Below, one piece after another: positions 8,323 through 63,887 of a DNA stretch of 64,000 nucleotides. The stretch lies in the NCBI GenBank assembly GCA_964016885.1, contig OZ024743.1, positions 243,908,001-243,972,000 of the forward strand. The letters are read 5' to 3'. The stretch is from Eledone cirrhosa. Its lineage: Eukaryota. Position 1 is the stretch's first letter, and each line of letters opens with the position of its first letter. The notes beneath the pieces were generated by a model that was given only the letters and a program-made list of their open reading frames with translations, did not search any database and was not told where the DNA came from. Made by a program: the position numbers and the translations under genes.

Positions 8323-8513
8323 TGCTGACTACCAAGTCTACACAGTTTTGAGATGAAAATGAAAATTTCGCCCCAGAAAGGGGCGAAAATTAGTTGACTC
8401 AACATCTGAAGGCCCAGGTAAGGGGTTAAACTAAACAATGTTATTAAATTGAGCAATGAACTCAGTTTTTTTTTACAATAATCCGTAAAAATCCGGAGCG
8501 AAGTAATTCCCGT

Positions 8514-24242: not shown

Positions 24243-24849
24243 GTAAACAGACGAAAAAAAATCTACAGCAGCAATAACAACAATAATAATTAGAATCAGA
24301 ATAAAAATCAGAACGGCGTGAAGTATATAATGTTAGGTTTTGTTTAGAGAAGGACTATTAAATATGAAAATATAATTCGAGAAGAGACACCAACATATAC
24401 ACAGGCATATATATATATATACGTACACACACATACACACACGCATATATGTATATAAATATGTATGTATGTATGTGTGTATGTATGTATGTATGTATGT
24501 ATGTATGTATGTATGTATGTATGTATGTATTTATTTATGTATGTTTGTATGTGTATGCGTGTGTATGCTAGTCTTTTCCCGAATTATATATATTCGCATA
24601 TAAATATTCATACTTAATTGCTGAAGGTTAAGTGTAATGAATCAAGCCCGTTGGCCCCCGATATAGCACCATTTGGTGTTATTGTAAGACATAATAACGT
24701 TTATTGTTGTCTATAGAAATATATATTCTATAGATAACGGTCCACTTTCACCTTTATCGACAACGTCACTGACAAGAGATTTAGATTTTAATCAAATTTT
24801 AAAACTTGTGGTTATTCAATGGAAGCAAATTCAATGTTGATGTTGTTGT

Positions 24850-42529: not shown

Positions 42530-42847
42530 GGTTTCTGATTTAGGCATAAGGCCAACAGGAGAGGAGAACGTCGATTAAATCGACCCCAGTATGTTACTGG
42601 TACTTTATATTAACCACCAAGTAAGGATGAAAGGCAAAGTTAACCTCGGCGGATTTTGAACTCAGAACTTAAAGGGCCATAACTCTAGAGTACTTTACGT
42701 TCTGAGTTCAAATCCCACCGAGGTTAGCTCTACCTTTCATCCTTACTTGGTGGTTAAAATAAAGGACCAGAAATACACTGGGGCCGATTTAATAGATTTT
42801 ACCCTCACCCCAAAATTACTGCCCTTGTGCCTATAGTAGAAACAAAA

Positions 42848-42850
<3 letters not shown>
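42530..42850. mobile_element. Head-to-head pair of Meta-domain-like SINEs; the + copy runs into (ATT)n
   Basis: - copy ~42530-42685, + copy ~42695-42850 ending CCCTTGTGCCTATAGTAGAAACAAAAATTATT. Confidence 0.75.
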
Positions 42851-42901
<51 letters not shown>

Positions 42902-44156
42902 GTTCTTTGAGTTTCAGTCATTGATGTTAGTTAACTGGAAAGTTTGTTGAAATGAATATCAAGCCACTACCTGCAGCCTCAGATATTCAGGACGTATCGG
43001 AGGGTTCTTGCTGTTCCCAGCAAGCATACCTTTTGAAGCGTTCCAAAAAGCGTGAAGGGGCCAATTTTCTTTAACCATCCCTGGAAACTTTTTGAGATAG
43101 TACCCAGTGCGCCTATGACAATCGGGACCACTTTGACTTCATGGCAGTTCCAAATCCTTTTTACCTCCCACTTTAAGTCCTGGTATCGGTTAATTTTCTC
43201 CCTCTCCTTCTCTTGCACTCTCGTGTCGAATGGGCAGGCCACATCCACAATCAGGCACGATCTTTTTTCTTTGTCCAAAACCACCAGGTCAGGCCTATTG
43301 TGTTCCAGTTTCTTGTCCGTCTGTATCCTAAAATCCCACAGCACCTTCACCTGATCGTTTTTTATCACCGACTCTGGCCTATGCTCATACCACTTCTCAG
43401 AATGAGGTAAATTGTTTACTTTGCATAGGTGCCAGTGGATCACCCTGCCCATCACATCAAGTCTCCAGCCGTTATAGTGAGTCTGGGCTAGGTGTTTACA
43501 CTCGGATACAATGTGAGCCACAGTCTCCTCTCTCTCTCCACAGATCCTACACAGTGGGCTAGCCTCCTCCTTGTAAATATGGTGTTTCAACCACTTCGTT
43601 TTGAGGGCCTGCTCTTGCGCAGCCATTAACATTCCTTCTGTAGCCTTTTTAAGGTCTCCTCTTTTCAACCAGTTCCATGTCTGTGGATCTCTGAATTCAG
43701 TTTTCTCAAAGAAGGTACTATGAAGGGATTTTTCCTGAAGGCTGCTCTTTCTCCTTGCTGTTATTTCCTCCTTGGAGATCCCCTGGTCTATGGTCCTCTC
43801 CTTCAGTACAGTTCTGAGCATTGGCTCCTTACTATCAGTCACGTATTTGTATAGGTTGTTTTTCTCCATCTGAACACAGTCCTCTATGCTGATAAGACCT
43901 CTTCCACCTTCAGATCTCTTTAAGTAGAGTCTATCGACATCACTCATCTTGTGGAACATGTTGTAGATAGTCAATAGCTTCCTAGTCTTCCTATCCATTT
44001 CTTTTTGTTCAGGAACATTCCATCTCAGAATTCCCGCACTGTACCTAATAATAGACACAGCTCGGGAATTTACTGCACTTATGGCATTCCTACTGATCAG
44101 ATGTGACTTTAATACGCTCCTTACTCTCCGAATGTATTCAGATCTTAACAATTCCT

Positions 44157-44158
<2 letters not shown>
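42902..44158 (-). mobile_element. R4/Dong-clade non-LTR retrotransposon, 5'-truncated, flanked by (TAA)n
   Basis: ORF 42979-44160 with GGRGL, AAQEQAL, CRICGEREETVAHIVSEC, RPDLVVLD..DVACP..EKINRYQDL (restriction-like endonuclease). Confidence 0.88.

Positions 44159-44160
<2 letters not shown>
42979..44160 (-). pseudogene. C-terminal RT thumb, CCHC and RLE domains of R4/Dong element
   Basis: Motifs above; the ATG is created at the microsatellite junction. Confidence 0.85.
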
Positions 44161-44227
<67 letters not shown>

Positions 44228-44437
44228 GGCGACCTACGTAGTAAATCGTATCATTGTGAGCTCCGCAAAGGTTTGTTATTTCCGTTTGTTAAAAATTGTC
44301 ATTTATGGAAAATTTTATTGTTAACTGTTTATAAGCGCACATACATTGTTTTCCGAAAAAGACACCCAAAAAGATTGGGGCCTTATGCCCAAAATTTAAA
44401 CTTTTATTATTATCAAAAATTTCTTTGAAAAAAAAAA

Positions 44438-46402
44438 ATGGCTAATTCACCTCTGCATCAAGCAGCTGAAAGCCTTCCTCACAAATTAACACCTCACACC
44501 GACACCACCATTGTAAATGTTACTACATTTGCCAACACAAAAAAAAAAATATAAGCAGTAGCAATATTTTAAATTTGTCTCAGGCAGACATTCATTTCCC
44601 GCCATTACCAATGACTGCAGGTGTTAAAGCCTCCACCACCACCACCACCACCACCACCACCGCGACAACCCCCACCCCCACCACCACCGCGACAACAGAA
44701 ACAAAAGAAGAAAAAAATAAATTAACTCGTGATGTCGAAATGAAATCAAGCAAAATGGACTCTTCCCCACCAAAGACGACTGACGTCACCACCACCACAA
44801 CTGAAACTAAAATTAATATTAACACAAATAACGATAGCAACAACAACAACAATGACATTATAAAACCGACCCTCAGTTTCGCCAGAGTAGCAAAACAGTT
44901 CGAAGCATTTACGGTAACTCAGGAGGATTTAGAAAATGCCAAACAAATGGTAAAGAAAGATGGGTACAGGGTCAGCCTCACCCCCCCACCTAATAAAATG
45001 GAGCATCGGCGCCTATGCACTGTGTCGTATAGAACAATAAATGTAAAATCGCGCCGAGTGGAACGGGCATCCGAGTCCCAAATCCAAAAAGCTTTGGGAC
45101 ATGTGTGGGCAAGAAAAACCCACATCAGACGTGGGCAAAAGTATGGAACCGTGGACGTGTTCTTTGAAACACCAGAGGAGGCTAGAGAACACTCCATGGC
45201 CCCATTAAGAAGTGACGACTTCACACTCGTCCCAAGCTATTGTGGCCAGAGACTCGTGAAGATCAGGGTGACCCACGTTCCACCGGCCATCGAAATTCCC
45301 TGGCTAATAGCGGCTGTCCTCGCCGGCATCGAAGCCAACACGAAAATAATAGCAATAGCAAAAGAAAAGCAGGAGAACTGGTCCGGATCTGGGATGGAGC
45401 TCCTGATCCAAGCGGACCAAAAAAGCATTGAGGAGATCCCAGAGGTAATAGACCTCACTGACGGCAGCCACCTCACGGTAATTGTCGAGGGCAGAAGACC
45501 TAGGTGTGTCGTTTGTGGTGAAGGAACCCACCTAAGGGCTTTCTGCCCTCAGGCTAAAAGGTTGAGGCCACCTCTCCTACCCACCCCAGTGACACAACCA
45601 TCAACACCACCAGTAGCAGAGATGGCAGCAACAACTGTAGCAGCAACAACAGAAGCAACTATAACAGCAACAACCCCGGCAACAGTAGCAAAACCAACAC
45701 CACCACTACCACCACTACCACCAGCAAAACCAACACCACCACCACCCAACGCTTCAGAACTAGCACCAGCGCCTACACCATCCACCACGCCACAACCAAA
45801 ACTAACGGCTGTGGAGGATTTTCCACTCCCCGGCCTATCACAACTGGAGACAGATTGTGACGACGAGGAGTGGGAAAAAAAAAGAAACCAAAAAAGAAAA
45901 AATTCTCTTCCTTCCCCCTCCAAAAACAAAATACAGAGGGAAACAAATAAATTAAGAAACAAAAAAGTTAGGACAGATATGCCACCATCCACACCAGCAT
46001 CACCAACCCCATCAACCCAAACACCAACACCACCACCATCATTAACCCCAACACCACCATCACCTACACCGCAAAAGTCACCAAAATGCGAAACAGAAAC
46101 AAACCCACAACAAACGCAAACAAAACAAAACAACCAAAACGATACACACTACACAGCATTAAATTTGAACAACAAGCAATTATTACACTACATCCAACAC
46201 AACACCAGCATCACAGAAAAAGACTACACAACAACCCCAAAATTCACACCACCTCCACACATACAAATCACTCGCATCACACAGAAAACGTACATGACAC
46301 TAAAACAAAAATTCCCCAAAGACATCAGAGACTTCCGACAAGCACTCTCCAGGAGGATTTATAAGGACATCCTTCCTGAGGAGGCCACACGCAGTGAAAA
46401 GG
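44438..46402 (+). pseudogene. Tx1 ORF1 of copy A (CCHC zinc knuckle, Pro/Thr-rich linker)
   Basis: Likely ATG at 44438 with frameshift in A-run ~44540; open 44575 onward; C-terminus lost by deletion. Confidence 0.8.
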
Positions 46403-49071
46403 CGTCTGGAGACCTTTCTTGGAACGTCCCGCTCTTTAGTGTTAGTGGGCGACTGGAACGGGATCTTAGATGCACGCTGGGATTGTGTGGGATTAGTGGA
46501 TAGGGAAGGAGGGTGCAAGAGTCTCACCAACCTGCTCAGACGTTTTGAACTGTCTGACAGGTACCGAATGGATTTCCCGAATGTACCAATGTGGACTTGG
46601 ATAAATCGCATAGCGTCATCCAGATCATATCTAGATAGAGTATTTTGTAGGGAAATAGATAGGTCTAGCATAGGCTGTCCACAATTCAAGATAGTCAGCT
46701 ACACGGACCACAAATTCGTGATCTGTGTGCTTGACTTAGATAGGCTTCATAGACGAGGACCCGGCTACTGGAAGCTAAACGCGTCCTTACCAGCGCGCAA
46801 GGCCTACAGAGACCGGATTAGCGAACTAGTTAAGCGGGCGTTGACGGGGGCCATCGTCAACAACAAGTGGTGGTTTGCTCTGAAAAGAGCAATTAGAATA
46901 GAGTCCATTAGGTTTAGTAAGACTTTAGCAATAGAGAAAAATAGAGCAGAGGGAGAATGCTACTCGATCCCGTGCAAATGTGTGAAGCTTTTCAGCGACA
47001 CTTCGCTCAACTGTTCGGGGGCAGTGGCGGACCGGATCGAGGGATGGACTTTAGTGTCTACCTCGACGGACTGCCGCGGCTTTCGGCCACTGAGGCGGAG
47101 TGTTGCGAAAAGCCGATAACAACCGCTGAAGTACGGGATGCAATGACTAGTTGCACAAGGGGTAAATCGCCTGGTTTGGATGGTCTGCCCTATGAACTTT
47201 ACGTACAAATGCCAAACTTGTTCGGAGGCCTCTTGGCGGACGTCTACTGCAACTGGCAACAGAACGGGAGAATTCCCAGCTCTGTGAGCCGAGGAGCGGT
47301 GGCGCTGCTGAGAAAGGATCCGAACAAGGGGGATAACATAGATAATTTTAGGCCCATAACTCTGAGGGTAGCTAGGGAACCTGGCACGGGTGGGTCCTTG
47401 ATCAATTTAGATCAGTCGAAAGCTTTCGATAGGGTCGACCATCGTTACCTAGCGGCAATCCTGAGGGCGGCTGGCTTTGGGCCCGTCTTCAGAGGCTGGA
47501 TCGCTGCCATGCACAGCGACATCTGCTCTGTAGTGAGAGTGAACGGTCACCTTTCGGAACCGTTCAACATCATGCGCTCGGTCCGCCAAGGATGTCCCCT
47601 CTCGTCCCTATTGTACGTATTGACTCTCGAGCCATTACTGCACAAACTGGAGACGTTGAGGGGGCTCCCGCGCGAACTAGGATGCGGAAGATCCGTGTCA
47701 GCATATGCCGACGATGTCACCGTAGTGGTGTCCAACGCCAAACACATCGAGGCGATCGGCACTACACTAAGAGAATACGAAGCGGTGACAGGAGCAATGA
47801 TCAACCAGAAAAAGTCAGTGGGCCTGCAGCTCGGCACCTGGAGAGGCAGGTCCATGCCGTCCAACAGCGTCGTCGGGCGCTGGACGGACGGACCGGTTAA
47901 ATTGCTAGGGGTCTGGTTCGGTCCAGACCTCCAGACGGACAAAAACTGGGACGAGGTGACGAGCAGGGTGGCTTCTCTCACCCAGAAATGGGCCGAGAGG
48001 AAGCTATCCCTGAAAGGTCGAGCGGAGGTGGCGAATGCGTACATCGCATCCGTCATCTACTACCGCCTGACCGTCGTACCTTGTCCTAAGCCCCGCCTGA
48101 CTGCGCTGGAGCGTTTGCTCTTTCGCTTCTTGTGGAAGGGACGCGCTCCGATGGTCAGGCGGTCCATCTACTGTCAACACCCGCTACGTGGAGGGCTGGG
48201 CATGCCGTGGCTGATGATGCGCAGACACGCGCTCAGGCTACGACATCTCCACCTCTTCCTCGACGGTGATCAGGTGTGGTCGCCGTTTGCTAGACACGTT
48301 TTTCCCCAGCTCGTCTCCTTGACGGAGCTGCAGTCCTGGGTCAAGCGAAGACCGAGAGGGAGCGCTTGGAGACTGGAATGTCTTCAGGCGCTCACAGCCC
48401 TCGACCAATCGGGCAATGTGATCGGTGGAAACTCCACCTTGGCGTTCTATAGGGGATTAGTGGAGGGGAAGAGCGACGACGTACTTGGGGAAACTCTAGG
48501 CGTCGACGAAAATCAACTAGCCAATCTCTTCGGAAGAACTTTCGGGCCAGGGCCTATGGACAACTTCCAGAAATCTCTGGCCTGGCAGTGCTACCGAGGA
48601 GCCTTGCCAGTTCGGGATAAACTCTACAGGCATGGAGGTGCCGTCAGCCGGGCATGTCCGAGATGCGCGCAGGGCGACGAAACCGTCCTGCACGCACTCG
48701 TCCAGTGTCCGAAAATTGCTGACTTGTGGGTTTATGTCGAACACCTGCTGTCGCGTTTAGGACGGATCCAGCTATCATCTGAGTCTATCGTGAGGATTGC
48801 CCCGCCCTCCTCCTTTAGCCGGGAAGGGCAGGCAGTTTTTATCTGTCTGGTGGCCATGGCGAAAGAGATAGTATGGTGGACACGTTTGAAAGGGCTGAAG
48901 ACGAGCACTTACCTCTTCGGTGATGCTCTGATTGACTTTTTCAAATTTCATTTGAAAAGGAAAATCAGAGTAGAGAAGGAAGTGCTCTCTTCCCAGCATT
49001 TTGTTGAAAGATGGGTGAGAGAAGCAAGAATGGCCCGAGTGAATGGGCCGACTCTGAGTATATATCTGTAA
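46403..49071 (+). pseudogene. Tx1 ORF2 of copy A, deleted and frameshifted
   Basis: ORFs 46394-47119 and 46957-49071; YADD present. Confidence 0.9.
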
Positions 49072-49333
49072 ACTAAAGGTGGAAAACTGGGAGAGGGCAC
49101 TTGCCTTGGTGGTCAGGGTCATTGTGGCTTTTTACTGGGCTTTCTCCACAAATGTCCCTCCGAAGTCTCCCCCCCCTATTGGGGAATTTTTCATTGTTAT
49201 TTTCATTGTTATTTTTGTTACATCCTCTGTTTTTGTTTTTTTACACGCAGAAATGCCCATTTGTACCGTCCTGCATTGTCCTGCACTGTCCTTAATGTCT
49301 ACTTTATGTAAACCCTTGTGGTTAATAAAGAAA

Positions 49334-49384
<51 letters not shown>

Positions 49385-49385
<1 letters not shown>

Positions 49386-51896
49386 AGCTGCATTTATCTT
49401 GCTTTATGTTCATACGAGTTATCACCAAGTCACAACCAGTGACCTCAAGAGACAACAAGGTCCGCCATGTTCAAGAAAGAACATACATACTCACACATGC
49501 ATCTTTAGTGTTTAGACTTGTGATGCACTTATATTGACAGAATCTTCCTTAGTATATGGGCAGTTCCCATTAGTACTATCTTTTGTATTTCTCCTATACG
49601 CGGGTTTCCTGGGATTTGCGATAAGTAATCATTAGACCCCTTAGGTATCATTCCTAGAGTGCCTACAACCACTGGTATTATTTTAGTTCTCAATTTCCAC
49701 ATTTTTCCAATTTCTATCTCCAGGTCCTTATCCTTGCTCAATTTTTCAAATGTTTTTATAGATACATTCTTGTCTATTGGAACAGACATATCAATTAGCA
49801 GGCATACCCTCTTTTTAAAGTCCTTCAATATTATATCAGGTCTATTTGCATCTATTTTTCGGTCTGTTTGGATGCTAAAGTTCCACAAGATTGAGATGTG
49901 ATCTTTTTCAAGTATGGGAGGTGGTTGATGCTCCCACCAATTCTTTTGATGGGGCAGGTCAAAATGCTTACACATTATCCAATGTATGTATTGTGCAGCT
50001 CTGTCATGCCTCTTTACGTATTCGGTTGGAGCTATAGGACTGCACATTGAAATTATATGGTCAATGGTCTCTGGTTGTTTTTTACATACACGGCATAATG
50101 GGCTGCATCCATTTTTTATTATGTTGGCTTGGTAACTTTTTGTTGGCAGACACTGATCTTGTGCTGATATAATCAGTCCTTCAGTCTCCGATTTCAGTCC
50201 AGAGGATGCCAACCACTGATGGGTTAAAGTTTTGTCAACATCAGGATTGTTAGCTCGTTCTGGGTATTTTCCATACAGAGGCTTTTCTTGCCATTTCTTA
50301 GCCAGTTTCTGTAGCAGTTCTTTCTTTGCAGTTACTTTTACCTGCTTTGCTTTTTCTGTGTTTTCCATTTCAGCAGTAAATGGGACTTCTGAAATTTGTA
50401 GTCCATTACTGTATCTTTGTACATCTTTTGTAATGGAGTATGATCTTTTGATGCTTTCGTGTTTCAAAACGAGTTTGATCATCCAATCATGTGATTCCCT
50501 TAGATATGTAGATAATCCAATTGTTGCAGTTTTCAACGCAATGTCTAACTGGATTAACCCACGTCCTCCTTCTTTCCTAGGGAGATATATTCTCTCTATA
50601 TCTGCCTTAGGGTGATGCATTCTGTGCGTGGTTAAGAATTTTCGAATTTTTGTATCGAGCCTACGGATCTCTGTGCTTGACCAGTTGATGACATTGTAAC
50701 TGTAGGTTACTACTGGTATGGCAAGCGTGTTTATGGCATCGATCCTATTCCTTGCATTCAATTCCGTTCTTAAGATTGCTCTTACTCTGCGGTAACATTC
50801 CTTCCTTATCCTTTCCCTCATTGTGGAGTGCTTGATTCCGTTTCCTTCACAAACACCTAGATATTTGTAAGTTTTTTCTTGATCAAGTTCTCTTATCACG
50901 TTCCCCCGATCAAGATTAATGTCTGAACTCTTCAGCAGCTTTTTCTGGTGAACGTTGCTTTGGCGCATTTATCTAGTCCAAACTCCATTTTAATGTCATC
51001 ACTGAACTGCTTCACAGTGGATAATAGCCCTTGCAATTGTTCATCATTTTTTGCAAATAGTTTCAGGTCATCCATGTAGAACAGGTGATTAATGATTTTG
51101 TCATAGACTTTATATCCATGTTTTGTTTCATTGAGCATTTTACTTAATGGTATAAGTGCGATGCAGAATAAAAGCGGTGATAAAGAGTCACCCTGAAAAA
51201 TTCCACAATTAATATTAACTTCTCCAGCTTCCAGTGATTTTGTTTCACTATTCAAAAGGAGTGTCGTTTTCCATGTCTTCATACTGAATGACAAAAACCT
51301 CCTGACAACGGGGGATACTTTGAAAATCTCTAAACATTTTTCAATCCAACTGTGTGGCAAACTATCGAATGCTTTTTTATAATCTATCCAAGCAATCGAT
51401 AGATTTTTGTGTCTCTTATGACAATCTTCCAGTATCATTTTGTTAACCAGAAGCTGATCCTTACAGCCATATGAGCCTCGTTTACATCCTTTCTGCTCAA
51501 TGGGAAATAGGTCATTTGTTATCAGGTGGTCATATGTGTATTCAGTTAGGACTGATGTTAATATGTTATACATTGTGGTCAAGCAAGTTATCGGTCTGTA
51601 ATTTTTGGGATTGTTTGTCTCATCATTCTTCGGAAGCAGGAATGTAATACCGTTAACTAGCCATGAAGGTATCTTTTCTGGCTCCTTAACTATTTCATTG
51701 TAAAGTTGGGCTAACAGCTCATGAGACTCTGTGAAGGCATTTATCCAAAAGTTTTGTATTTTGTCTTTTCCTGGGGATTTCTATTTGCTGGTTTTTCTTA
51801 GAGCCAAGCGCAACTGTTTAACTGTTATATTTTCCCATGTTTGTTCCTCAAGGTGAGCTGTATCTTTCATTTGTCTGTCTATCCATGGGGCATGTA

Positions 51897-51899
<3 letters not shown>
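49385..51899 (-). mobile_element. Second R4/Dong-clade element (different family), 5'-truncated, flanked by (TAA)n
   Basis: YRPITCL, EQKGC, WIDYKKAFDS, GIFQGDSLSP, FYMDDLKL, CRVC..ETIDHIISMC, RPDIILKD..DMSVP; frameshift ~50940, stop ~51781. Confidence 0.9.
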
Positions 51900-51927
<28 letters not shown>

Positions 51928-52143
51928 GAATGCCATGGTTGACGGAGGCTCGGCTCTGTAAGGTATAGTAATTTTTAACCGTTAAAACAATTGTAAATTG
52001 TTTAAAACTTGAACCAAATTGTTGATAAAGACACCCTCCTCCTCGTGAGAGGGGTCTTTCTGTCCGTTATTTGGCCCTTCGGGGTTAAATAACCAGTTAT
52101 TGGGGTTTTGTACCCAAAATTTCATTTTAAACAAAAAAACAAC

Positions 52144-54240
52144 ATGGCTACGAAAAAGAAATTTCATACGTCACTCCCACTCATTCCGTCTTCTTCTTCC
52201 CCAATCATCACTACAGCAGAGAGAAGATTGTCTCTCTCCCTCCCTTCTTTAAATGTGTCTCTCTCCCTCCCTTCTCTTTCGCAAGTGACGAAAGAAAAGA
52301 AAAGTCTCGTGCAAAGCGTGCAAGGTTTCTCCACGACGACGACGACAGCGACGAAACAGGTGTGCGGGAAATACGAAAACCCAGTTCATTCGTCTGACGT
52401 CAGGAATAATAGCAGTAGCAGCCGTAATAACAACAGCAACAGTGACAATGAAAACAACAGTAGCAGCCGCAACAGCATCACCAGCAGCATAAACAACAAC
52501 AGCATTAGCAGCAGCAACACCAACAACAACCACAGCAACAGCGGCGGAGGCAGTAGTCGTAGTACCTGCAGCAACAACAAAAGTACCAGCAGCTCTGACG
52601 ACAACAACAACAGCAGAGAAAAACCAATCTCATTTGCAGGTATTGCGAAAAACTTGGAAACAATCCTCATAACAAATGAGGAATTAGAGGAAGCGAAGAA
52701 GATAGTGACAAAGAACGGACACCGAGCAATCTGCAAGGCAGCGGAAAAATTTTTCAAAACCCAAGAGCACTGTACGGTCACGTACCGTACAGTAAGTACA
52801 AAATCCCGTAGGGTGGAAAGAGCCACAGAGGCCCAAATACAAAAAGCCTTGGGGTCTGTGTGGCAGCGGAAAACGCACATCACCCGAGGCAAAAAATATG
52901 CCACCGTAGACGTACTTTTTGCCACACCCCAGGAGGCAAAGGCCCAATCAGTAGTGACCCTAAGGAGCGAGGAAATGGTGTTGGTGCCCTCCTACTGCGG
53001 GCAAAAAATTGTGAGGGTCAAACTGACCCACGTCCCCCCCGGAATGACCCCTTCTTGGCTGGCCGCGTCTGTCCTAATCGGAATCGAGGACAAAACAACT
53101 GTACTGCAAGTACAGAAAAAAGTAAGAGAAGATTGGGTCGGCTCCTCCATTGAGATGCTAATCCAAACCAACCAGGAGTGCATCGAAGCTATCCCGGATG
53201 TGATAGACTTCGATAACGGCACTCAACTGCCCATAAGTGTTGAGGGCAAACGCCCGAAATGCTTTCGCTGTGGATCGAAGACTCACCTCAGGGCCTTCTG
53301 CAACGAGAAGACCCTGAGAAAGGAGAAAACCCCCCTCCTTCCGAATCCGGCTCCACGGCTACCAGCAACAGGACAAGCGGCAACCAGGAACGATAGGTCC
53401 GTGGCACCCATACCCACTCCACGGAAATCAAAGACAGCAGCAGCAGTGGAAATATTAACAACAACAACAGCAATACCAAATGCAGCTGCAACAGAGACTC
53501 CAGTGCAAACATCACCAACAACAACAAGTGAAAGAGTGGAGCTGGTACCCCTCCCCGACCTTACAGAATCAGACATGGAGTGTGAGGTGGGAGAGGGATG
53601 GCAAAAGGTCGCAAGAAGGCACAAACGCAGAAGCAGCGCATCGTCGCCTTTGAAAAGGGAGGAAAGAAATGAGAAAAGGGTAAAGTCTACTGCAAAGAGA
53701 CCCACAGCAGCAACACCACCAACACCATCACCACCCACACCAGCACCACCATCACCACCGGCGACAACCCCACCGCCAACAACACCTTCAACACCACCAC
53801 CACAAGCACCAACATCGCAAACACAACAACAAAACACACACACCCAGCAACAACGACAAGAAAATAGCAGAACCACACCCCACCCCCAGAAAAACAAATG
53901 CACGGCAATAAACACACACAACAAGAAACTAATGACTTACATAATTGAACACACAGACATTTCACAACAGGACTACATAATACCAGCACCAATCAAAACG
54001 CCAACTAACATAAGACTGCTAAAAATAGCACAGAAACAATACACAAACATTAAAACGAAATTCCCCAACGCAGTTGGTGATTTCAGGGACCTAGGAGGAA
54101 CCATCAATCGAAGAGTATATTCAGACATTCTCTTAGAAGAGCCGACGACCAGCCGAAGGGACGATTCAACGGTCCCTTCACCAGACGATCAAGTGAAAAG
54201 GGATGTAAAAACCATCCCTCCTCTACCAAAAGTACGGTAA
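52144..54240 (+). CDS. Tx1 ORF1 protein (RRM-like region, CCHC zinc knuckle)
   Basis: Open frame 52108-54240, first ATG ~52145 (MATKKK); CFRCGSKTHLRAFC; homologous to ORF1 of copies A and C. Confidence 0.85.
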   Translation: MATKKKFHTSLPLIPSSSSPIITTAERRLSLSLPSLNVSLSLPSLSQVTKEKKSLVQSVQGFSTTTTTATKQVCGKYENPVHSSDVRNNSSSSRNNNSNSDNENNSSSRNSITSSINNNSISSSNTNNNHSNSGGGSSRSTCSNNKSTSSSDDNNNSREKPISFAGIAKNLETILITNEELEEAKKIVTKNGHRAICKAAEKFFKTQEHCTVTYRTVSTKSRRVERATEAQIQKALGSVWQRKTHITRGKKYATVDVLFATPQEAKAQSVVTLRSEEMVLVPSYCGQKIVRVKLTHVPPGMTPSWLAASVLIGIEDKTTVLQVQKKVREDWVGSSIEMLIQTNQECIEAIPDVIDFDNGTQLPISVEGKRPKCFRCGSKTHLRAFCNEKTLRKEKTPLLPNPAPRLPATGQAATRNDRSVAPIPTPRKSKTAAAVEILTTTTAIPNAAATETPVQTSPTTTSERVELVPLPDLTESDMECEVGEGWQKVARRHKRRSSASSPLKREERNEKRVKSTAKRPTAATPPTPSPPTPAPPSPPATTPPPTTPSTPPPQAPTSQTQQQNTHTQQQRQENSRTTPHPQKNKCTAINTHNKKLMTYIIEHTDISQQDYIIPAPIKTPTNIRLLKIAQKQYTNIKTKFPNAVGDFRDLGGTINRRVYSDILLEEPTTSRRDDSTVPSPDDQVKRDVKTIPPLPKVR

Positions 54241-54275
54241 GTGGTCTTTCCCATCTTTTCCACTCTATTTTAAAC

Positions 54276-57200
54276 ATGACCTCACTCAGAATAGGCAGCA
54301 TAAATGCGCGTGGCTTGGGGTCGTCATGGAAGCAGGGTCACCTGCTCAACGACCTCAGGTCACTAAACATAGATGTAGTGGCCATCAGCGAGACCAGAAT
54401 CTCCGAAGCACGGGCCTTCGCACCGATCTTCGGCGGCTACGATGTGTACGCATCTCCCAGCCGTCCTGGATCGGGTGGAGGAGTTGCTGTGCTTTTTCGG
54501 AGAGGTTTGGATCTCGCCATACGGGCCATCTTCCTGGACCCAGAGGGTAAGCTGGTGGTGCTGGACGTGACCAGCGGAGACGGGCAAGCTTTCAGGCTAG
54601 TGGCCGTCTATGCCCCGACAGGAGCAGGACGGCCTGATTTCTTCCGGCGTCTGGAGACCTTTCTTGGAACGTCCCGCTCTTTAGTGTTAGTGGGCGACTG
54701 GAACGGGATCTTAGATGCACGCTGGGACTGTGTGGGATTAGCGGATAGGGGTGGAGGGTGCAAGAGCCTCACCAACCTGCTCAGGCGTTTTGAACTGTCT
54801 GACAGGTACCGATTGGATTTCCCGAATGTGCCAATGTGGACTTGGACAAACCGCATAGGGTCATCCAGATCATATCTAGATAGAGTATTTTGTAGGGAAA
54901 TAGATAGGTCTAGCATAGGCTGTCCACAATTCAAGATAGTCAGCTACACGGACCACAAATTCGTGACCTGTGTGCTTGACTTAGATAGGCTTCATAGACG
55001 AGGACCCGGCTACTGGAAGCTAAACGCGTCCTTACCAGCGCGCAAGGCCTACAGAGACCGGATTAGCGAACTAGTTAAGCGGGCGTTGACGGGGGCCATC
55101 GTCAACAACAAGTGGTGGTTTGCTCTGAAAAGAGCGATTAGAATAGAATCGATTAGGTTTAGTAAGGCTTTAGCAATAGAGAAAAATAGAGCAGAGGGAG
55201 AACTAGTTAGAAAATTAGACGAGGCGCTTAGCAAAGGCATTGCGACCGACGTGCTTGCGGCGAAATTGGCCCTTGACCAATTCTTCAATGCAAAGCACGA
55301 AGGCTGCGTTGTCAGAGCTAGGGTGCGTGCTCTCAGACACGAGGGGACGAAAGCCGTTCAATGGGCCCGAGTGGCGGAGGCGCGTCGTGGCAACAAAGCC
55401 ACGATCCGGTCTTTGGTGGACCACGACGGGCGCATGCTACTCGATCCCGGGCAAATGTGTGAAGCTTTTCAGCGACACTTCGCTCAGCTGTTCGGGGGCA
55501 GCGGGGGGCCGGGTAGAGGGATGGACTTTAGTGTCTACCTCGACGGACTGCCGCGGCTCTCGGCCACTGAGGCGAAGTGTTGCGAAAAGCCGATAACAGC
55601 CGCTGAAGTACGGGAGGCAATGACTGGCTGCACAAGGGGTAAATCGCCTGGTTTGGATGGTCTGCCCTATGAACTTTACGTACAGATGCCAGACTTGTTC
55701 GGAGGCCTCTTGGCGGACGTCTACTGCAACTGGCAACAGAACGGGAGAATTCCCAGTTCTGTGAGCCGAGGAGCGGTGGCACTGCTGAGAAAGGATCCGA
55801 ACAAGGGGGATAACATAGACAATTTCCGGCCCATAACTCTGCTAAACACAGAGTTTAAGATTTTGGCCAAGGTGCTAGCAAAGAGGTTGGCGCTTGTCGT
55901 TGGTGGTCTGGTGGGAGAGGCGCAGACATGCGCCATTCCCGACAGATCCATCCACGACAACCTCCACCTCATGCGATACATCGTAGAGAGGGTAGCTAGG
56001 GAACCTGGCACGGGTGGGTCCTTGATCAATTTAGATCAGTCGAAAGCTTTCGATAGGGTCGACCATCGTTACCTAGCGGCAGTCCTGAGGGCGGCTGGCT
56101 TTGGGCCCGTCTTCAGAGGCTGGATCGCTGCCATGCACAGCGACATCTGCTCTGTGGTGAGAGTGAACGGTCACCTGTCGGAACCGTTCAACATCATGCG
56201 CTCGGTCCGCCAAGGATGTCCCCTCTCGTCCCTCTTGTACGTATTGACTCTCGAGCCATTACTGCACAAACTGGAGACGTTGAGGGGAGTCCCGCGCGAA
56301 CTAGGATGCGGAAGATCCGTGTCAGCATATGCGGACGATGTCACCGTAGTGGTGTCGAACGCCAAACACATCGAGGCGATCGGCACTACACTAAGAGAAT
56401 ACGAAGCGGTGACAGGAGCAATGATCAACCAGGAAAAGTCAGTGGGCCTGCAGCTCGGCTCCTGGAGAGGCAGGTCCATGCCGTCCAACAGCGTCGTCGG
56501 GCGCTGGACGGACGGACCGGTTAAATTGCTAGGGGTCTGGTTCGGTCCGGACCTCCAGACGGACAAAAACTGGGACGAGGTGACGAGCAGGGTGGCTTCT
56601 CTCACCCAGAAATGGGCGGAGAGGAAGCTATCCCTGAAAGGTCGAGCGGAGGTGGCTAACGCGTACATCGCGTCTGTCATCTGCTACCGCCTAACCGTCG
56701 TACCTTGTCCTAAGCCTCGCCTGACTGCGCTGGAGCGTTTGCTCTTTCGCTTTTTGTGGAAGGGACGTGCTCCGATGGTCAGGCGGTCCATCTGTTGTCA
56801 ACACCCGCTACGTGGAGGGCTGGGCATGCCGTGGCTGATGATGCGCAGGCACGCGCTCAGGCTACGACATCTCCACCTCTTCCTCGACGGTGATCAGGTG
56901 TGGTCGCCGTTTGTTAGACGCGTTTTTCCCCAGCTCGTTTCCTTGACGGAGCTGCAGTCCTGGGTCAAGCGAAGACCGAGAGGGAGCGCCTGGAGACTGG
57001 AATGTCTTCAGGCGCTCACAGCCCTCGACCAATCGGGCAATGTGATCGGTGGAAACTCCACCTCGGCGTTCTATAGAGGATTAGTGGAGGGGAAGAGCGA
57101 CGACGTACTTGGGGAAACTCTAGGCGTCGACGAAAATCAACTAGCCAATCTCTTCGGAAGAACTTTCGGGCCAGGGCCTATGGACAACTTCCAGAAATCT

Positions 57201-57692
57201 CTGGCCTGGCAGTGCTACCGAGGAGCCTTGCCAGTTCGGGATAAACTCTACAGGCATGGAGGTGCCGTCAGCCGGGCATGTCCGAGATGCGCGCAGGGCG
57301 ACGAAACCGTCCTGCACGCACTCGTCCAGTGTCCGAAAATTGCTGACTTGTGGGTTTATGTCGAACACCTGCTGTCGCGTTTAGGACGGACCCAGCTATC
57401 ATCTGAGTCTATCGTGAGGATTGCCCCGCCCAGCTTTAGCCGGGAAGGGCAGGCAGTTTTTATCTGTCTGGTGGCCATGGCGAAAGAGATAGTATGGTGG
57501 ACACGTTTGAAAGGGCTGAAGACGAGCACTTACCTCTTCGGTGATGCTCTGATTGACTTTTTCAAATTTCATTTGAAAAGGAAAATCAGAGTAGAGAAGG
57601 AAGTGCTCTCTTCCCAGCATTTTGTTGAAAGATGGGTGAGAGAAGCAAGAATGGCCCGAGTGAATGGGCCGACTCTGAGTATATATCTGTAA
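54276..57692 (+). CDS. Tx1 ORF2 polyprotein: APE endonuclease, reverse transcriptase, C-terminal CCHC (1138 aa)
   Basis: GSINARG, ISETR, LVGDWN, YLDRVF, TDH; RPITLLN, LDQSKAFD, RQGCPLS, YADD; CPRC..ETVLHALVQC. Confidence 0.96.
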   Translation: MTSLRIGSINARGLGSSWKQGHLLNDLRSLNIDVVAISETRISEARAFAPIFGGYDVYASPSRPGSGGGVAVLFRRGLDLAIRAIFLDPEGKLVVLDVTSGDGQAFRLVAVYAPTGAGRPDFFRRLETFLGTSRSLVLVGDWNGILDARWDCVGLADRGGGCKSLTNLLRRFELSDRYRLDFPNVPMWTWTNRIGSSRSYLDRVFCREIDRSSIGCPQFKIVSYTDHKFVTCVLDLDRLHRRGPGYWKLNASLPARKAYRDRISELVKRALTGAIVNNKWWFALKRAIRIESIRFSKALAIEKNRAEGELVRKLDEALSKGIATDVLAAKLALDQFFNAKHEGCVVRARVRALRHEGTKAVQWARVAEARRGNKATIRSLVDHDGRMLLDPGQMCEAFQRHFAQLFGGSGGPGRGMDFSVYLDGLPRLSATEAKCCEKPITAAEVREAMTGCTRGKSPGLDGLPYELYVQMPDLFGGLLADVYCNWQQNGRIPSSVSRGAVALLRKDPNKGDNIDNFRPITLLNTEFKILAKVLAKRLALVVGGLVGEAQTCAIPDRSIHDNLHLMRYIVERVAREPGTGGSLINLDQSKAFDRVDHRYLAAVLRAAGFGPVFRGWIAAMHSDICSVVRVNGHLSEPFNIMRSVRQGCPLSSLLYVLTLEPLLHKLETLRGVPRELGCGRSVSAYADDVTVVVSNAKHIEAIGTTLREYEAVTGAMINQEKSVGLQLGSWRGRSMPSNSVVGRWTDGPVKLLGVWFGPDLQTDKNWDEVTSRVASLTQKWAERKLSLKGRAEVANAYIASVICYRLTVVPCPKPRLTALERLLFRFLWKGRAPMVRRSICCQHPLRGGLGMPWLMMRRHALRLRHLHLFLDGDQVWSPFVRRVFPQLVSLTELQSWVKRRPRGSAWRLECLQALTALDQSGNVIGGNSTSAFYRGLVEGKSDDVLGETLGVDENQLANLFGRTFGPGPMDNFQKSLAWQCYRGALPVRDKLYRHGGAVSRACPRCAQGDETVLHALVQCPKIADLWVYVEHLLSRLGRTQLSSESIVRIAPPSFSREGQAVFICLVAMAKEIVWWTRLKGLKTSTYLFGDALIDFFKFHLKRKIRVEKEVLSSQHFVERWVREARMARVNGPTLSIYL

Positions 57693-57952
57693 ACTAAAGG
57701 TGGAAAACTGGGAGAGGGCACTTGCCTTGGTGGTCAGGGTCATTGTGGCTTTTTACTGGGCTTTCTCCACAAATGTCCCTCCGAAGTCTCCCCCCTATTG
57801 GGGAATTTTTCATTGTTATTTTCATTGTTATTTTTGTTACATCCTCTGTTTTTGTTTTTTTACACGCAGAAATGCCCATTTGTACTGTCCTGCATTGTCC
57901 TGCACTGTCCTTAATGTCTACTTTATGTAAACCCTTGTGGTTAATAAAGAAA

Positions 57953-58002
<50 letters not shown>

Positions 58003-61000
58003 GGCGACCTACGTAGTAAATCGTATCATCGTGAGCTCCGCAAAGGTTTGTTATTTTCAGTTATTTAAAATTGCCATTTATGGAAAATTTTTATTGTTAA
58101 CTATATATAAGTGCACATACATTGATTTCTGAAAAGGACACTCAAAAATATTGGGGCCTTGAGCCCAAAATTTAAACTTTTTATAATTATCAAACAAAAA
58201 ATTTTTTCTTTGAAAAATAATGGATGACTCAGATTCACTCCTTCCTCACAATCCAACACCTCACACCGACACCACCATTGTAAACATTGCTACGTTTGCC
58301 AACACTGGAATTGTAAGCAGTAGCAATATTTTAAATTTGTCTCAGGCAGACGTTCATTTCCCGCCATTACCAATGACTGCAGGTGTTAAAGCCGCCACCA
58401 CCACCACCCCCACCACCGCGACAACCACCACCCCCACCACCACCACAGCGACAACAGAAACAAAAGAAAAAATAGATTAACTCATGATATCGAAGTGAAT
58501 TCAACCAAAATGAACTCTTCCACACCGAACACCACTCACGCCACCACCACCACAACTGAAACTAAAATTAACAATAGCTGAAATAACGATAATAACAACA
58601 GCAGCAATGAAATTAAGAAAACTACCCTGAGTTTTGCCAGAGTAGCAAAAATGTGCGAAGCGATCCAGGTAACTCAGGAAGAATTAGACGAAGCCAAAGG
58701 AATGGTAAAGAAAGATGGGTACAGGGTCAGCCTCACCCCTCCACCTAATAAAATGGAGCAGCGTCGCCTATGCACCGTATCTTATCGGACAATAAACATA
58801 AAATCGCGCCGAGTGGAACGGGCATCTGAGTCCCAAATCCAAAAAGCTTTGGGACATGTGTGGGCAAAAAACCCCCACATCATTCGTGGGCAGAAGTATG
58901 GAACCGTGGACGTGTTCTTTGAAACACCACAGGAGGCCAGAGAACACTCCATGGCCCTATTAAGAAGTGACGACTTCACACTCATCCCAAGCTATTGTGG
59001 CCAGAGACTTCTGAAGATCAGGGTGACCCAAGTTCCACCGGCCATCGAAATTCCCTGGCTAATGGCTGCCTCCTCGCCGGCATCGAGGCCAACACCAAAA
59101 TAATAGAAATAGCAAAAGAAAAGCAGGAGAACTGGTCCGGATCAGGGATGGAGCTCCTGATCCAAGCGGACCATAAAAGCATTGAGGAGATCCCAGAGGT
59201 AATAGACCTCTCCGAGGGCAGCCACCTCACCGTAATCGTCGAGGGCAGAAGACCTAGGTGTGTCGTTTGTGGTGAAGGAACCCACCTAAGGGCTTTCTGC
59301 CCTCAGGCTAAAAGGTTGAGGCCACCTCTCTTACCCACCCCAGTGATTCAACCATCAACACCACCAGCAGCAGAAATAGCAGCAACAACTGTAGCAGCAA
59401 CAACAGAAGCAACTATAACAGCAACAACCCCAGCAACAGTAGCAAAACCAACACCACCACCACCCAACGCCCCAGAACTAGCACCAGCGCCTACACCATC
59501 CACCACGCCACAAGCAAAACCAACGCCTGTGGAGGATTTTCCACTCCCCGGCTTATCGCAACTGGAGACAGATTGTGACGACGAGGAGTGAGAAACGGTA
59601 TCAAGAAAAAAGAAAAAAAAAAAGAAACCAAAAAAGAAAAAATTCTCTTCCTTCCCCCTCAAAAAACAAAATACAGAGGGAAACAAATAAATTATCGAAC
59701 AAGAAAGTTAAGACAGATATGCCACCATCCACACCAACATCACCAACCCCATGACCACAAACACCAACACCATCACCATCATTAACCCCAACACCACCAT
59801 CACCAACACCACAAAAGTCACCAAAAAGCGTAACAGAAACAAACCCACAACAAACGCAAACAAAACAAAACAACCATAACGATAGACACTACACAGCATT
59901 AAATTTGAACAACCAATTATTACACTACATGCAACACAACACCAGCATCACAGAAAAAGACTACACAACAACCCCAAAGTTCACACCACCTCCACACATA
60001 CAAATCACTCGCATCACACAGAAAACGTACACGACACTAAAACAAAAATTTCCCAAAGACATCGGAGACTTCCGAGAAACACTCTCCAGGAGGATTTATA
60101 AGGACATCCTTCCGGAGGAGGCCACAAGCAGTGAAAAGGATGGACAAACCATCCTTCCTCTACGAGAAGTAAGGTAAGTGGTCTTTCCCATCTTTCCCAC
60201 TCCATTTCAACATGACCTCACCCAGAATAGGCAGCATAAATGCGCGTGGCTTGGGGTCGTCATGGAAGCAGGGCCACCTGCTCAACGACCTCAGGTCACT
60301 AAACATAGATGTAGTGGCCATCAGCGAGACCAGAATCTCCGAAGCACGGGCCTTCGCACCGATCTTCGGCGGCTACGATGTGTACGCATCTCCCAGCCGT
60401 CCGGGATCGGGGGGAGGAGTTGCTGTGCTTTTTCGGAGAGGTTTGGATCTCGCCATACGGGCCATCTTCCTGGACCCAGAAGGTAAGTTGGTGGTGCTAG
60501 ACGTGACCAGCGGAGACAGGCAAGCTTTCAGGCTAGTGGCCATCTATGCCCCGACAGGAGCAGGGCGGCCTGATTTCTTCCGGCGTCTGGAGACCTTTCT
60601 TGGAACGTCCCGCTCTTTAGTGTTAGTGGGCGACTGGAACGGGATCTTAGATGCACGCTGGGACTGTGTGGGATTAGCGGATAGGAGGAGGGTGCAAGAG
60701 CCTCACCAACCTGCTCAGGCGTTTTGAACTGTCTGACAGGTACCGATTGGATTTCCCGAATGTGCCAATGTGGACTTGGACAAATCTCATAGGGTCATCC
60801 AGATCATATCTAGATAGAGTATTTTGTAGAGAAATAGATAGGTCTAGCATAGGCTCTCCACAATTCAAGATAGTCAGCTACACGGACCATAAATTCGTGA
60901 TCTGTGTACTTGACTTAGATAGGCTTCATAGCCGAGGACCCGGCTACTGGAAGCTAAACGCGTCCTTACAAGCGCGCAAGGCCTACAGAGACCAGATTAG

Positions 61001-63829
61001 CGAACTAGTTAAGCGGGCTTTGACGGGGGCCATCGTCAACAACAAGTGGTGGTTTGTTCTGAAAAGAGCGATTAGAATAGAGTCCATTAGGTTTAGTAAG
61101 GCTTTAGCAATAGAGAAAAATAGAGCAGAGGGAGAATTAGTTAGAAAATTAGACGAGGCGCTTAGTAAAGGCATCGCGACCGGCGTACTTGCGGCGAAAT
61201 TGGCCCTTGACCAATTCTTCAATGCAAAGAACGAAGGTTGCGTTATCAGAGCTAGGGTGCGTGCTCTCAGACACGAGGGGACGAAAGCCGTTCAATGGGC
61301 CCGAGTGGCGGAGGCGCGTCGTGGCAACAAAGCCACGATCCGGTCTTTGGTGGACCACGACGGGCGCATGCTACTCGATCCCGGGAAAATATGTGAAGCT
61401 TTTCAGCGACACTTCGCTCAGTTGTTCAGGGGCAGCGGCGGGGCGGATCGAGGGATGGACTTTAGTGTCTACCTCGACGGACTGCCGCGGCTCTCGGCCA
61501 CTGAGGCGGAGTGTTGCGAAAAGCCGATAACAGCCGCTGAAGTACGGGAGGCAATGAATGGCTGCACAAGGGGTAAATCGCCTGGTTTGGATGGTCTTTA
61601 CGTACAGATGCCAGACTTGTTCGGAGGCCTCTTGGCGGACGTCTACTGCAACTGGCAACAGAACGGGAGAATTCCCAGTTCTGTGAGCCGAGGAGCGGTG
61701 GCACTGCTGAGAAAGGATCCTAACAAGGGGGATAACATAGATAATTTCAGGCCCATAACTCTGCTAAACACAGAGTTCAAGATTTTGGCCAAGGTGCTAG
61801 CAAAGAGGTTGGCGCTTGTCGTTTGTGGTCTGGTGGGAGAGGCGCAGACATGCGCCATTCCCGATAGATCCATCCACGACAACCTCCACCTCATGCGATA
61901 CATCGTAGAGAGGGTAGCTAGGGAACCTGGCACGGGTGGGTCCTTGATCAATTTAGATCAGTCGAAAGCTTTCGATAGGGTCGACCATCGTTACCTAACG
62001 GCAGTCCTGAGGGCGGTTGGCTTTGGGCCCGTCTTCAGAGGCTGGATCGCTGCCATGCACAACGACATCTGCTCTGTGGTGAGAGTGAACGGTCACCTTT
62101 CGGAACCGTTCAACATCATGCGCTCGGTCCGCCAAGGATGTCCCCTCTCGTCCCTATTGTACGTATTGACTCTCGAGCCATTACTGCACAAACTGGAGAC
62201 GTTGAGGGGCGTCCCGCGCGAACTAGGATGCGGAAGATCCGTGCCAGCATATGCGGACGATGTTACCGTAGTGGTGTCGAAGGCCAAACACATCGAGGCG
62301 ATCGGCACTACACTAAGAGAATACGAAGCGGTGACAGGAGCAATGATCAACCAGGAAAAGTCAGTGGGCCTGCAGCTCGGCACCTGGAGAGGCAGGTCCA
62401 TGCCGTCCAACAGCGTCGTCGGACGCTGGACGGACGGACCGGTTAAATTGCTAGGGGTCTGGTTCGGTCCGGACCTCCAGACGGACAAAAACTGGGACGA
62501 GGTGACAAGCAGGGTGGCTTCTCTCACCCAGAAATGGGCGGAGAGGAAGCTATCCCTGAAAGGTTGAGCGGAGGTGGCTAACGCGTACATCGCGTCTGTC
62601 ATCTGCTACCTCCTGACCGTCGTACCTTGTCCTAAGCCCCGCCTGACTGCACTAGAGCGTTTGCTCTTTCGCTTTTTGTGGAAGGGACGCGCTCCGATGG
62701 TCAGGCGGTCCATCTTCTGTCAACACCCGCTACGTGGAGGGCTGGGAATGCTCAGGCTATGACATCTCCACCTCTTCCTCGACGGTGATCAGGTGTGGTC
62801 GCCGTTTGCTAGACACGTATTTCCCCAGCTCGTTTCCTTGACGGAGCTGCAGTCCTGGGTCAAGCGAAGACCGAGAGGGAGCGCCTGGAGACTGGAATGT
62901 CTTCAGGCGCTCACAGCCCTCGACCAATCGGGCAATGTGATCGGTGGAAACTCCACCTCGGCGTTCTATAGAGGATTAGTGGAGGGGAAGAGCGACGACG
63001 TACTTGGGGATACTCTAGGCGTCGACGAAAATCAACTAGCCAATCTCTTGGGAAGAACTTTCGGGCCGGGACCTATGGACAACTTCCAGAAATCTCTGGC
63101 CTGGCAGTGCTACCGAGGAGCCTTGCCAGTTCGGGATAAACTCTACAGGCATGGAGGTGCCGTCAGCCGAGCATGTCCGAGATGCGCGCAGGGCGACGAA
63201 ACCGTCCTGCACGCACTCGTCCAGTGTCCGAAAATTGCTGACTTGTGGGTTTATGTCGAACACCTGCTGTCGCGTGTAGGACGGATCCGGCTATCATCTG
63301 AGTCCATCGTGAGGATTTCCCTGCCCTCTTTCTTTAGCCGGGACGGGCAGGCAGTTTTTATCTGTCTGGTGGCCATGGCGAAAGAGATAGTATGGTGGAC
63401 ACGTTTGAAAGGGCTGAAGATGAGCACTTACCTCTTCGGTGATGCCCTGATTGACTTTTTCAAATTTCATTTGAAAAGGAAAATCAGAGTAGCGAGGGAA
63501 GTGCTCTCTTCCCAGCATTTTGTTGAAAGATGGGTGAGAAAAGCAAGAATGGCCTGAGTGAATGGGCCTACTCTGAGTACGTATCTGTAAATTAAAGGTG
63601 GAAAACTGGGAGAGGGCACTTGCCTTGGTGGTCAGGGTCACTGTGGCCTTTTACTGGGCTTTCTCCACAAATGTCCCTCCGAAGCCTGGGGAATTTTTCA
63701 TTGTTATTTTTTTGTTACATCCTCTGTTTTTGTTTTTTACACGCAGAAATGCCCATTTGTACCGTCCTGTATTGTCCTGCACTGTCCTTAATGTCTACTT
63801 TATGTAAACCCTTGTGGTTAATAAAGAAA

Positions 63830-63831
<2 letters not shown>
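58003..63831 (+). mobile_element. Tx1-clade LINE copy C, full length, multiple stops and frameshifts
   Basis: Same 5' end and ORF1 type as copy A; ORF1 58220-60177 and ORF2 60212-63590 fragmented; ends AAAGAAATC(ATT)n. Confidence 0.93.

Positions 63832-63887
<56 letters not shown>
63832..63887. repeat. (ATT)n tract (others at 42849-42901, 44159-44227, 49336-49384, 51899-51927, 57955-58002)
   Basis: Direct reading. Confidence 0.95.

Follow-up and report, generated by a model that had tools for sequence, protein, structure and literature searches.

The window analysed here is a 64,000-nt stretch of Eledone cirrhosa contig OZ024743.1 (positions 243,908,001 to 243,972,000, forward strand), and its right-hand third holds a ~21 kb array of five retrotransposons within one (ATT)n tract (Table 1). 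Three of these, designated copies A, B and C, are Tx1-like long interspersed nuclear elements (LINEs) on the plus strand, and two, Dong1 and Dong2, are Dong/R4-like LINEs on the opposite strand. Along the plus strand from 42690 to 63887 we observed a SINE-like (short interspersed nuclear element) repeat, (ATT)18, Dong1, (ATT)23, copy A, (ATT)16, Dong2, about ten ATT units, copy B, (ATT)16, copy C and (ATT)18.7, followed by unique DNA. The six tracts (T1 to T6) measured 18, 23, 16.3, 9.7, 16 and 18.7 units. Copies A, B and C are very likely Tx1-clade LINEs with an insertion preference for (ATT)n, and we think it probable that a cephalopod-type Tx1-clade lineage inserts preferentially into such microsatellites.

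Table 1. Array components, parts of copy B and related copies in the window (ORF, open reading frame; APE, apurinic/apyrimidinic-like endonuclease; RT, reverse transcriptase; UTR, untranslated region).
Feature	Positions	Strand	Description
Related copy D	2854..8514	-	Decayed; flanked by short alternating AT alone
Related copy E	21278..24290	-	Degraded; 5'UTR, ORF1 and APE kept, rest lost
SINE-like repeat	42690..42847	+	Short ATT-type tail from which the target microsatellite probably arose; repeat family represented several times in the window
T1, (ATT)18	42848..42901	+	SINE tail, expanded, together with the (TAA)n tail at the 3' end of Dong1
Dong1	42902..44158	-	5'-truncated Dong/R4-like LINE; 393-aa frame open to stop; CCHC and PD-(D/E)xK restriction-like endonuclease motifs
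T2, (ATT)23	44159..44227	+	Between the 5' ends of Dong1 and copy A; only 5' tract unexplained by any Tx1 tail in view
Tx1-like copy A	44228..49335	+	Full 5' end; three large internal deletions
T3, (ATT)16	49336..49384	+	3' flank of copy A and 3' tail of Dong2
Dong2	49385..51898	-	5'-truncated, decayed Dong/R4-like LINE (frameshift, in-frame stop)
T4, ~10 ATT units	51899..51927	+	Between the 5' ends of Dong2 and copy B
Tx1-like copy B	51928..57954	+	6027 nt; full length, apparently intact
B ORF1	52144..54240	+	698 aa; predicted tandem RRM-like core and CX2CX4HX4C knuckle (Type I ORF1)
Crossover, B 5' module / shared ORF2	54192..54201	+	Approximate; first deletion of copy A begins after the same decamer
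B ORF2	54276..57692	+	1138 aa; APE endonuclease, RT, C-terminal zinc knuckle (1002)
AATAAA signal	57943..57948	+	6 nt between signal and element end; A and C alike
T5, (ATT)16	57955..58002	+	Between copies B and C
Tx1-like copy C	58003..63831	+	Full length, decayed (3 stops, frameshifts); 5' module common to A
T6, (ATT)18.7	63832..63887	+	Followed by unique flank

The junctions of copies A, B and C (3 of 3) read ATT/G...AAAGAAATC/ATT, just as a preliminary description of this DNA had it: G directly after ATT at the 5' end and AATAAAGAAATC/ATT at the 3' end. No poly(A) was observed at any of the three 3' junctions. All six ATT-class tracts of at least 18 nt in the window lay inside the array, and outside it pure ATT of at least 9, 12 and 27 nt stood directly before 25, 2 and 0 of 85,922 strand-positions, respectively, a background drawn from this window only. 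The 5' tracts of A (44159-44227) and B (51899-51927) adjoin the truncated 5' ends of the minus-strand Dong/R4-like elements, also as first described. The accompanying claim that these tracts are neither Tx1 nor Dong tails stood for A, which has no Tx1 element upstream, and was weaker for B, because Dong2 may have cut A's tail in two and left its far half as B's tract. The 5' tract of copy C includes the tail of copy B; because C is more decayed than B, B would have entered ATT repeat already lying 5' of C. In every order of events that we could construct, the 5' neighbour of each copy at insertion was ATT, and at least two, probably three, separate insertions chose the ATT repeat at this locus in the same orientation and phase.

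The three copies share 95-98% identity in ORF2 and lie head to tail, as a tandem duplication or an assembly collapse of a single insertion might leave them. The first 2.26 kb of copy B (5'UTR and ORF1) is, however, only ~50-60% identical in nucleotides to the corresponding part of A and C, which are ~90% identical to each other there. We also compared private changes over the 871 ORF2 codons common to all three copies. Copy A carried 26 synonymous and 15 non-synonymous changes and no stops (dN/dS 0.18) and copy B 12 and 7 (dN/dS 0.18), while copy C carried 19 and 29 together with 3 stops (dN/dS 0.53). The non-synonymous excess of C over B was significant (p=7e-5), as was its ratio of non-synonymous to synonymous changes (N/S) against A and B combined (p=0.008). 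Because the private changes of A and B bear the mark of purifying selection, which is unexpected after local duplication, these two copies came from different source elements that were under selection, and have decayed little since insertion. These data together with the divergent 5' module of B rule out local tandem duplication, and we consider it highly improbable that duplication or assembly collapse made the array. Judged by its decay, copy C appears to be older than the insertions of A and B.

Copy A is dead through its three deletions, which measure at least 454, 232 and 147 nt relative to B. None of the three has GT-AG ends, and their origin as splicing products was rejected. A decamer just before the ORF1 stop (54192, 60130 and 46393-46402) coincides both with the crossover point of the B module and with the start of A's first deletion, and is possibly a template-switch hot spot. 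In a 176-aa protein, P0316, part of ORF1 is fused to an internal stretch of APE with 65% identity to B, a structure that resembles the ORF1-to-APE deletion of copy A.

On a different account the family has no real specificity: its insertions, each ending in an (ATT)n 3' tail, are widespread, and the array is either a local hot spot or a single concatemer that arose as the RT jumped between A-, B- and C-type RNA templates, with Dong2 interrupting it later. The 5' tracts of B and C can be read as parts of the tail of the upstream copy, and the mosaic ancestry described above shows template exchange in this family. The 3' ends of A and B are also almost identical: over the last 850 nt (57101-57954 in B) there are 4 differences in 854 nt, whereas the upstream part has 66 in 2076 nt (0.5% vs 3.2%, p=1.5e-6; identities of 99.5% and 96.8%). 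This near-identity reflects either very recent descent of the segment or mosaic ancestry, or local gene conversion. On the other side, no Tx1 element lies upstream of A's 5' tract, so even a single event needs an ATT target; the far greater decay of C than of B argues for different insertion times; and long ATT tracts are absent elsewhere in the window. We therefore regard this account as unlikely. A one-step concatemer in particular is disfavoured, and C might be a copy of an already defective source.

Both reading frames of copy B are open, as had been claimed, with lengths of 698 aa (ORF1) and 1138 aa (ORF2). ORF2 matched the Pfam families Exo_endo_phos, RVT_1 and zf-RVT. The best structure matches of its APE domain were to L1-EN, and the domain keeps the homologue-conserved residues N10, E39, Y112, D141, N143, D202 and H227. 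The RT motifs QGCP (646) and YADD (685) were observed. Whole ORF1 matched no Pfam family, and weak MBD matches were judged to be chance. An AlphaFold model of its core had a pLDDT of 88.6, and a Foldseek search with the model returned 8 matches at E<=0.001, all of them RRM (RNA-recognition motif) proteins, with TM values of just 0.25-0.33. The B and A cores are 53% identical in amino acids, and a CX2CX4HX4C knuckle was observed in ORF1 of both; Pfam zf-CCHC was found in 7 of 20 alignment members, B itself not among them. On the model, B ORF1 is predicted to be a Type I ORF1, the kind (RRM plus CCHC knuckle) that PMC5203782, in the part available to us, links to Tx1 in non-mammalian animals, and which would agree with Tx1-clade membership.

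None of the seven private ORF2 substitutions of B fell in the 251 columns that are at least 95% conserved among 26 homologues. Copy B is thus a full-length copy with both ORFs and its catalytic motifs intact, as is expected of an active LINE, and from its sequence present activity of B or its family would be plausible and unsurprising. In Octopus vulgaris, the text of PMC13282606 available to us reports, for L1-Tx1, 421 insertions in 13 families with recent activity and, for Dong-R4, 5 families; the word 'target' is absent from its main text, and its supplement gives family counts only.

The RT of copy B scored 108-110 bits to L1 ORF2p proteins (108 to human L1) against 57-81 bits to R2 proteins, and reached ~246-249 bits (HMMER) with fish proteins whose group includes TX1-named entries. 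The element thus has the features of the L1 group, namely an N-terminal APE, an RT nearer to L1 than to R2 and a C-terminal zinc knuckle, and within that group its RT is nearer to Tx1-annotated proteins than to mammalian L1. The closest named relative of the RT was a protein of Argonauta hians (74% identical). Copies B, C and D, one NCBI protein and the Argonauta protein formed one clade in a 43-row tree (support 100/99). In a 34-row RT tree, whose base did not resolve and which held no L1-proper and no Xenopus Tx1L row, the window copies and the Argonauta protein formed their own clade (99/99) outside the fish clade (100/98). The B RT was 35-40% identical to fish entries named 'transposon TX1 149 kDa protein' and to BAC82605, BAC82606 and BAC82609, which we take to be the proteins of the Kibi/Koshi paper. 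Cluster look-ups of nine close ORF2 homologues gave no informative names.

How such copies could come to lie in ATT may be pictured as follows. An internal promoter in the ~210-nt 5'UTR would make a two-ORF RNA that reads into the flanking repeat and gains a few AUU units before any poly(A). The RNA is expected to carry these units because the AATAAA signal ends 6 nt before the element end, and cleavage normally occurs 10-30 nt downstream of a polyadenylation signal. The APE of ORF2 would then nick the (AAT)n strand; like the L1 endonuclease, it would probably do so at a TpA step. The freed DNA end would pair with the AUU units of the RNA and prime reverse transcription, leaving poly(A) uncopied; RNA-target pairing is described as aiding priming for I, R1Bm and R2Ol (PMC6007223, as far as available). 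Since no poly(A) was observed at the three junctions, priming probably starts within the AUU stretch paired to the nicked (AAT)n strand. The top strand would be cut after ATT, which gives the ATT/G junction, and each insertion would leave ATT on both sides and so renew the target, with Dong/R4 elements making use of it from the opposite strand. In phase, both junctions coincide with TpA steps, the step preferred by the L1 endonuclease (available parts of PMC1950540 and PMC6007223); the phase of the 3' junction is uninformative if the RNA pairs. Because two different 5'UTR/ORF1 modules show the same junctions, the targeting determinant would lie in ORF2 or the 3'UTR and not in ORF1 or the promoter, and targeting may travel with the ORF2/3'UTR module.

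The preference could also arise from RNA-DNA homology alone, with a relaxed, L1-like nicker of TpA or AT-rich sites and a read-through (AUU)n tail that picks ATT at priming; a copy landing in another AT-rich site, as relative D did at its short alternating-AT site, would then pass on a different target. The AATAAA position, which predicts AUU in the RNA, fits this account, as do the missing poly(A) and the TpA phases of both junctions. The betaB6-betaB5 loop of the B endonuclease is as short as or shorter than that of most close homologues, and shorter than in three named fish Tx1-type proteins, which also suits a relaxed nicker. L1 chimeras are reported to integrate at only some of the sites that are nicked, a restriction that base pairing may explain (PMC1950540, as far as available). 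Against it, the accessible text of PMC4494074 reports the endonuclease to be the main target determinant in the Tx1 clade, with Tx1L-EN nicking almost solely its own target. Folding of all four ends examined gave no support for a conserved 3' or 5' RNA hairpin (z-scores -0.87, -1.48, -1.44 and +1.21). We consider targeting by homology alone possible, at somewhat less than an even chance; it would alter the mechanism and not the observed preference. As to cause, an ATT-reading endonuclease aided by pairing and pairing with a relaxed nicker appear roughly even. A fuller proposal sees here a still-mobile Tx1 lineage of octopods, so far undescribed, with an APE that by itself reads (AAT)n/(ATT)n. 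The lineage would share the Dong target by convergence from the opposite strand, carry its specificity on an ORF2/3'UTR module that takes interchangeable promoter-ORF1 modules, and have in D a sister that prefers a different AT site. We advance this combination tentatively, as a possible rather than a probable one.

Two relatives outside the array bear on the age and breadth of the preference. Copy D is 63% identical in amino acids to B in the APE and 72% in the RT region. It had been described as ending in (TA)n; we instead found alternating AT ~8 nt long after D and ~5 nt long before its 5' end. The site may carry a target duplication of 5 bp and is no (TA)n microsatellite. Alternating AT of at least 7 nt starts at 0.2% of positions in 1-42000 when long tracts are masked (2.3% unmasked), and the D site is thus short and somewhat unusual; D as a (TA)n-specific element was unsupported. 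The suggestion that D shows target divergence rests on one old copy and is a lead only. A 71-bp minisatellite was observed in inverted orientation on both sides of D (2016-2258 and 8527-8763), with one array directly at its 5' end.

The APE pieces of copy E are 50-57% identical to B. A two-mismatch (ATT)6 at 24290-24273 directly precedes the G at its plausible 5' end, which would place E itself at ~24272-21278, and from that G the 5'UTR of E would be ~230 nt compared with 190-214 nt in A, B and D. Other near-(ATT)6 matches outside the array came to one duplicated pair only. Copy E is a mild hint that targeting of ATT predates the A/B/C family. A SINE copy (23669-23855) was observed inserted in its ORF1 region.

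The minus-strand neighbours of the Tx1 copies are only 35% identical to each other in amino acids. Both have C-terminal CCHC and PD-(D/E)xK motifs and (TAA)n at both ends, and the RT of Dong2 is nearer to R2 than to L1. The C-terminal part of Dong2 had no sequence match in the PDB. The putative Dong/R4 label for both rests on these motifs and the target; Dong targets TAA repeats according to the part of PMC3812793 available.

The first tract seems to have begun as a SINE tail that then expanded, because three other SINE copies in the window (~17357, 23725 and 41895) end in AGAAA(T)C and a short AATTAT tail; it is likely that one such tail grew into the target microsatellite of the array. The other SINE copies in the window are not located in ATT tracts. 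At the left end of the array two SINE copies adjoin in inverted orientation (42558-42847). The SINE 3' ends at 42818-42847, 17450-17486 and 23818-23853 resemble the Tx1 3' end at 57925-57954 (shuffle p 0.005, 0.001 and 0.02), and this likeness, both having ATT-type tails, could be a shared tail or convergence.

A splice-donor-like GTAAGT was observed at the ORF1 end in all four copies that keep the region, at 54237 (B), 60174 (C), 6578 (D, minus) and 22010 (E, minus), and in each it is followed by a pyrimidine-rich spacer. With the first downstream YAG as acceptor, the removed segment would measure 53 nt in B, 52 nt in C and 39 nt in D, and in these three, unlike in E, ORF1 would run on in frame into ORF2; candidate introns of this size would be very short. 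A spliced ORF1-ORF2 fusion, suggested by the donor-like hexamer at the ORF1 stop, received no support from homologous proteins: the ORF2 N-terminus was found in none of the 150 listed ORF1 homologues (of 293 matched), and none of 13 long homologues ended in the residue class predicted by the splice motif.

Elsewhere in the window, 28558-32627 holds an RT-like 593-aa frame (29486-31267) between 563-nt direct repeats that are 99.5% identical, with an inverted partial copy. The frame had no Pfam match, and its Atlas look-alikes were eukaryotic clusters with HTH_animal and RVT_1; the layout resembles that of a young Penelope-like element. Just to the left of the array, within 37613-41507, we observed a 265-nt inverted repeat (98%), a long ACC-rich low-complexity block (~38200-40120) and arrays of 42-bp and 43-bp period (~40175-40564 and 41005-41507).

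Several points weigh against a preference of the lineage for (ATT)n and a young, intact copy B. All of the evidence comes from one locus, which was chosen for its striking look, and only A's 5' tract is free of an explanation as a Tx1 tail. The shared 5' phase says little because A and C have the same 5' sequence, which leaves two independent sequence types and agreement at about one in three by chance. The N/S contrast between C and B alone was not significant (Fisher p=0.063), and the near-identity of the A and B 3' ends could be local gene conversion instead of youth. Copy B departs from the homologue consensus at 23 of the 251 conserved columns, none of these among its private changes. Copy D belongs to the same clade as the A/B/C family and is not in ATT, and the 5' end of E is uncertain, in a 5'UTR that is AT-rich. 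A target-specific Tx1 family has been defined in the available text of PMC4494074 as one with more than 20% of its flanks of one sequence type. In the window all three copies of the A/B/C family have ATT on both flanks, all at the one locus. The preliminary description of an intact (ATT)n-specific Tx1 family thus stands for the locus, where a Tx1-type lineage lies in (ATT)n and copy B looks intact; specificity across the family and present activity would extend what this one locus suggests.

Among known systems, Mutsu of the Tx1 clade targets 5S. The targets given for Tx1 in the accessible text of PMC4494074 are Tx1D, U2, (TC)n, (TTC)n, (TTCC)n, (TTTC)n and several transposons, with Kibi in (TC)n and Koshi in (TTC)n as fish Tx1-clade LINEs and crocodilian Tx1 families in (TTCC)n and (TTTC)n. 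A literature search, whose scope lay outside Repbase, Dfam and the target-labelled Tx1 tree (Fig. 3) and supplements of PMC4494074, returned no ATT-, AAT- or TAA-specific Tx1 element, and the available portions of PMC4640811, PMC3747384, PMC5753468, PMC9004415 and PMC8967140 held nothing bearing on an ATT target. The window copies resemble Kibi, Koshi and the crocodilian families in being two-ORF APE-RT LINEs of Tx1 type that insert into a microsatellite. They differ in that their target is (ATT)n, a repeat without C, and not (TC)n or (TTC)n, and in forming a clade separate from the fish microsatellite-targeting lineage, whose proteins we assume to be those of Kibi and Koshi. Compared with BAC82605, BAC82606 and BAC82609, the ORF2 of B is shorter (1138 vs 1246-1329 aa), as is its endonuclease hairpin loop.

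With Dong of the R4 clade the copies share the same microsatellite target, and two Dong-like copies lie in the same array. The Dong-like copies, on the opposite strand, have a C-terminal restriction-like endonuclease and an R2-like RT. In the Tx1 copies the endonuclease is an N-terminal APE and ORF1 is a separate frame; a target common to both kinds would be a case of convergence. The R1-clade APE LINEs TRAS and SART lie in telomeric repeats, and there too two element types enter one tandem repeat from opposite strands and pairing of read-through RNA aids priming. Here, in contrast, an APE element of the Tx1 clade and a restriction-like-endonuclease element of the R4 clade share an interstitial microsatellite in one array. 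In L1 lineages with 5'UTR/ORF1 replacement a new 5' module is joined to a conserved ORF2; in copy B the swap takes in the whole 5'UTR and ORF1, at the ORF1 end, in a microsatellite-associated element.

If the preference is true, (ATT)n becomes a further target of Tx1 elements, and elements with two kinds of endonuclease, APE and restriction-like, have converged on a single microsatellite. To a specialist this may be plausible more than startling, as Tx1 families repeatedly adopt new microsatellite targets. If D does prefer a different AT site, B and D, with their 63% identical APE domains, would be a close natural pair for mapping a change of APE target. How far the targeting of APE LINEs depends on nicking specificity, and how far on RNA-DNA pairing, becomes a testable question here, given an intact copy whose target is a simple repeat, a swap of ORF1 that arose naturally and a close relative located at another site. 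The array also points to a route by which large retrotransposon arrays could grow from microsatellites in repeat-rich cephalopod-type genomes.

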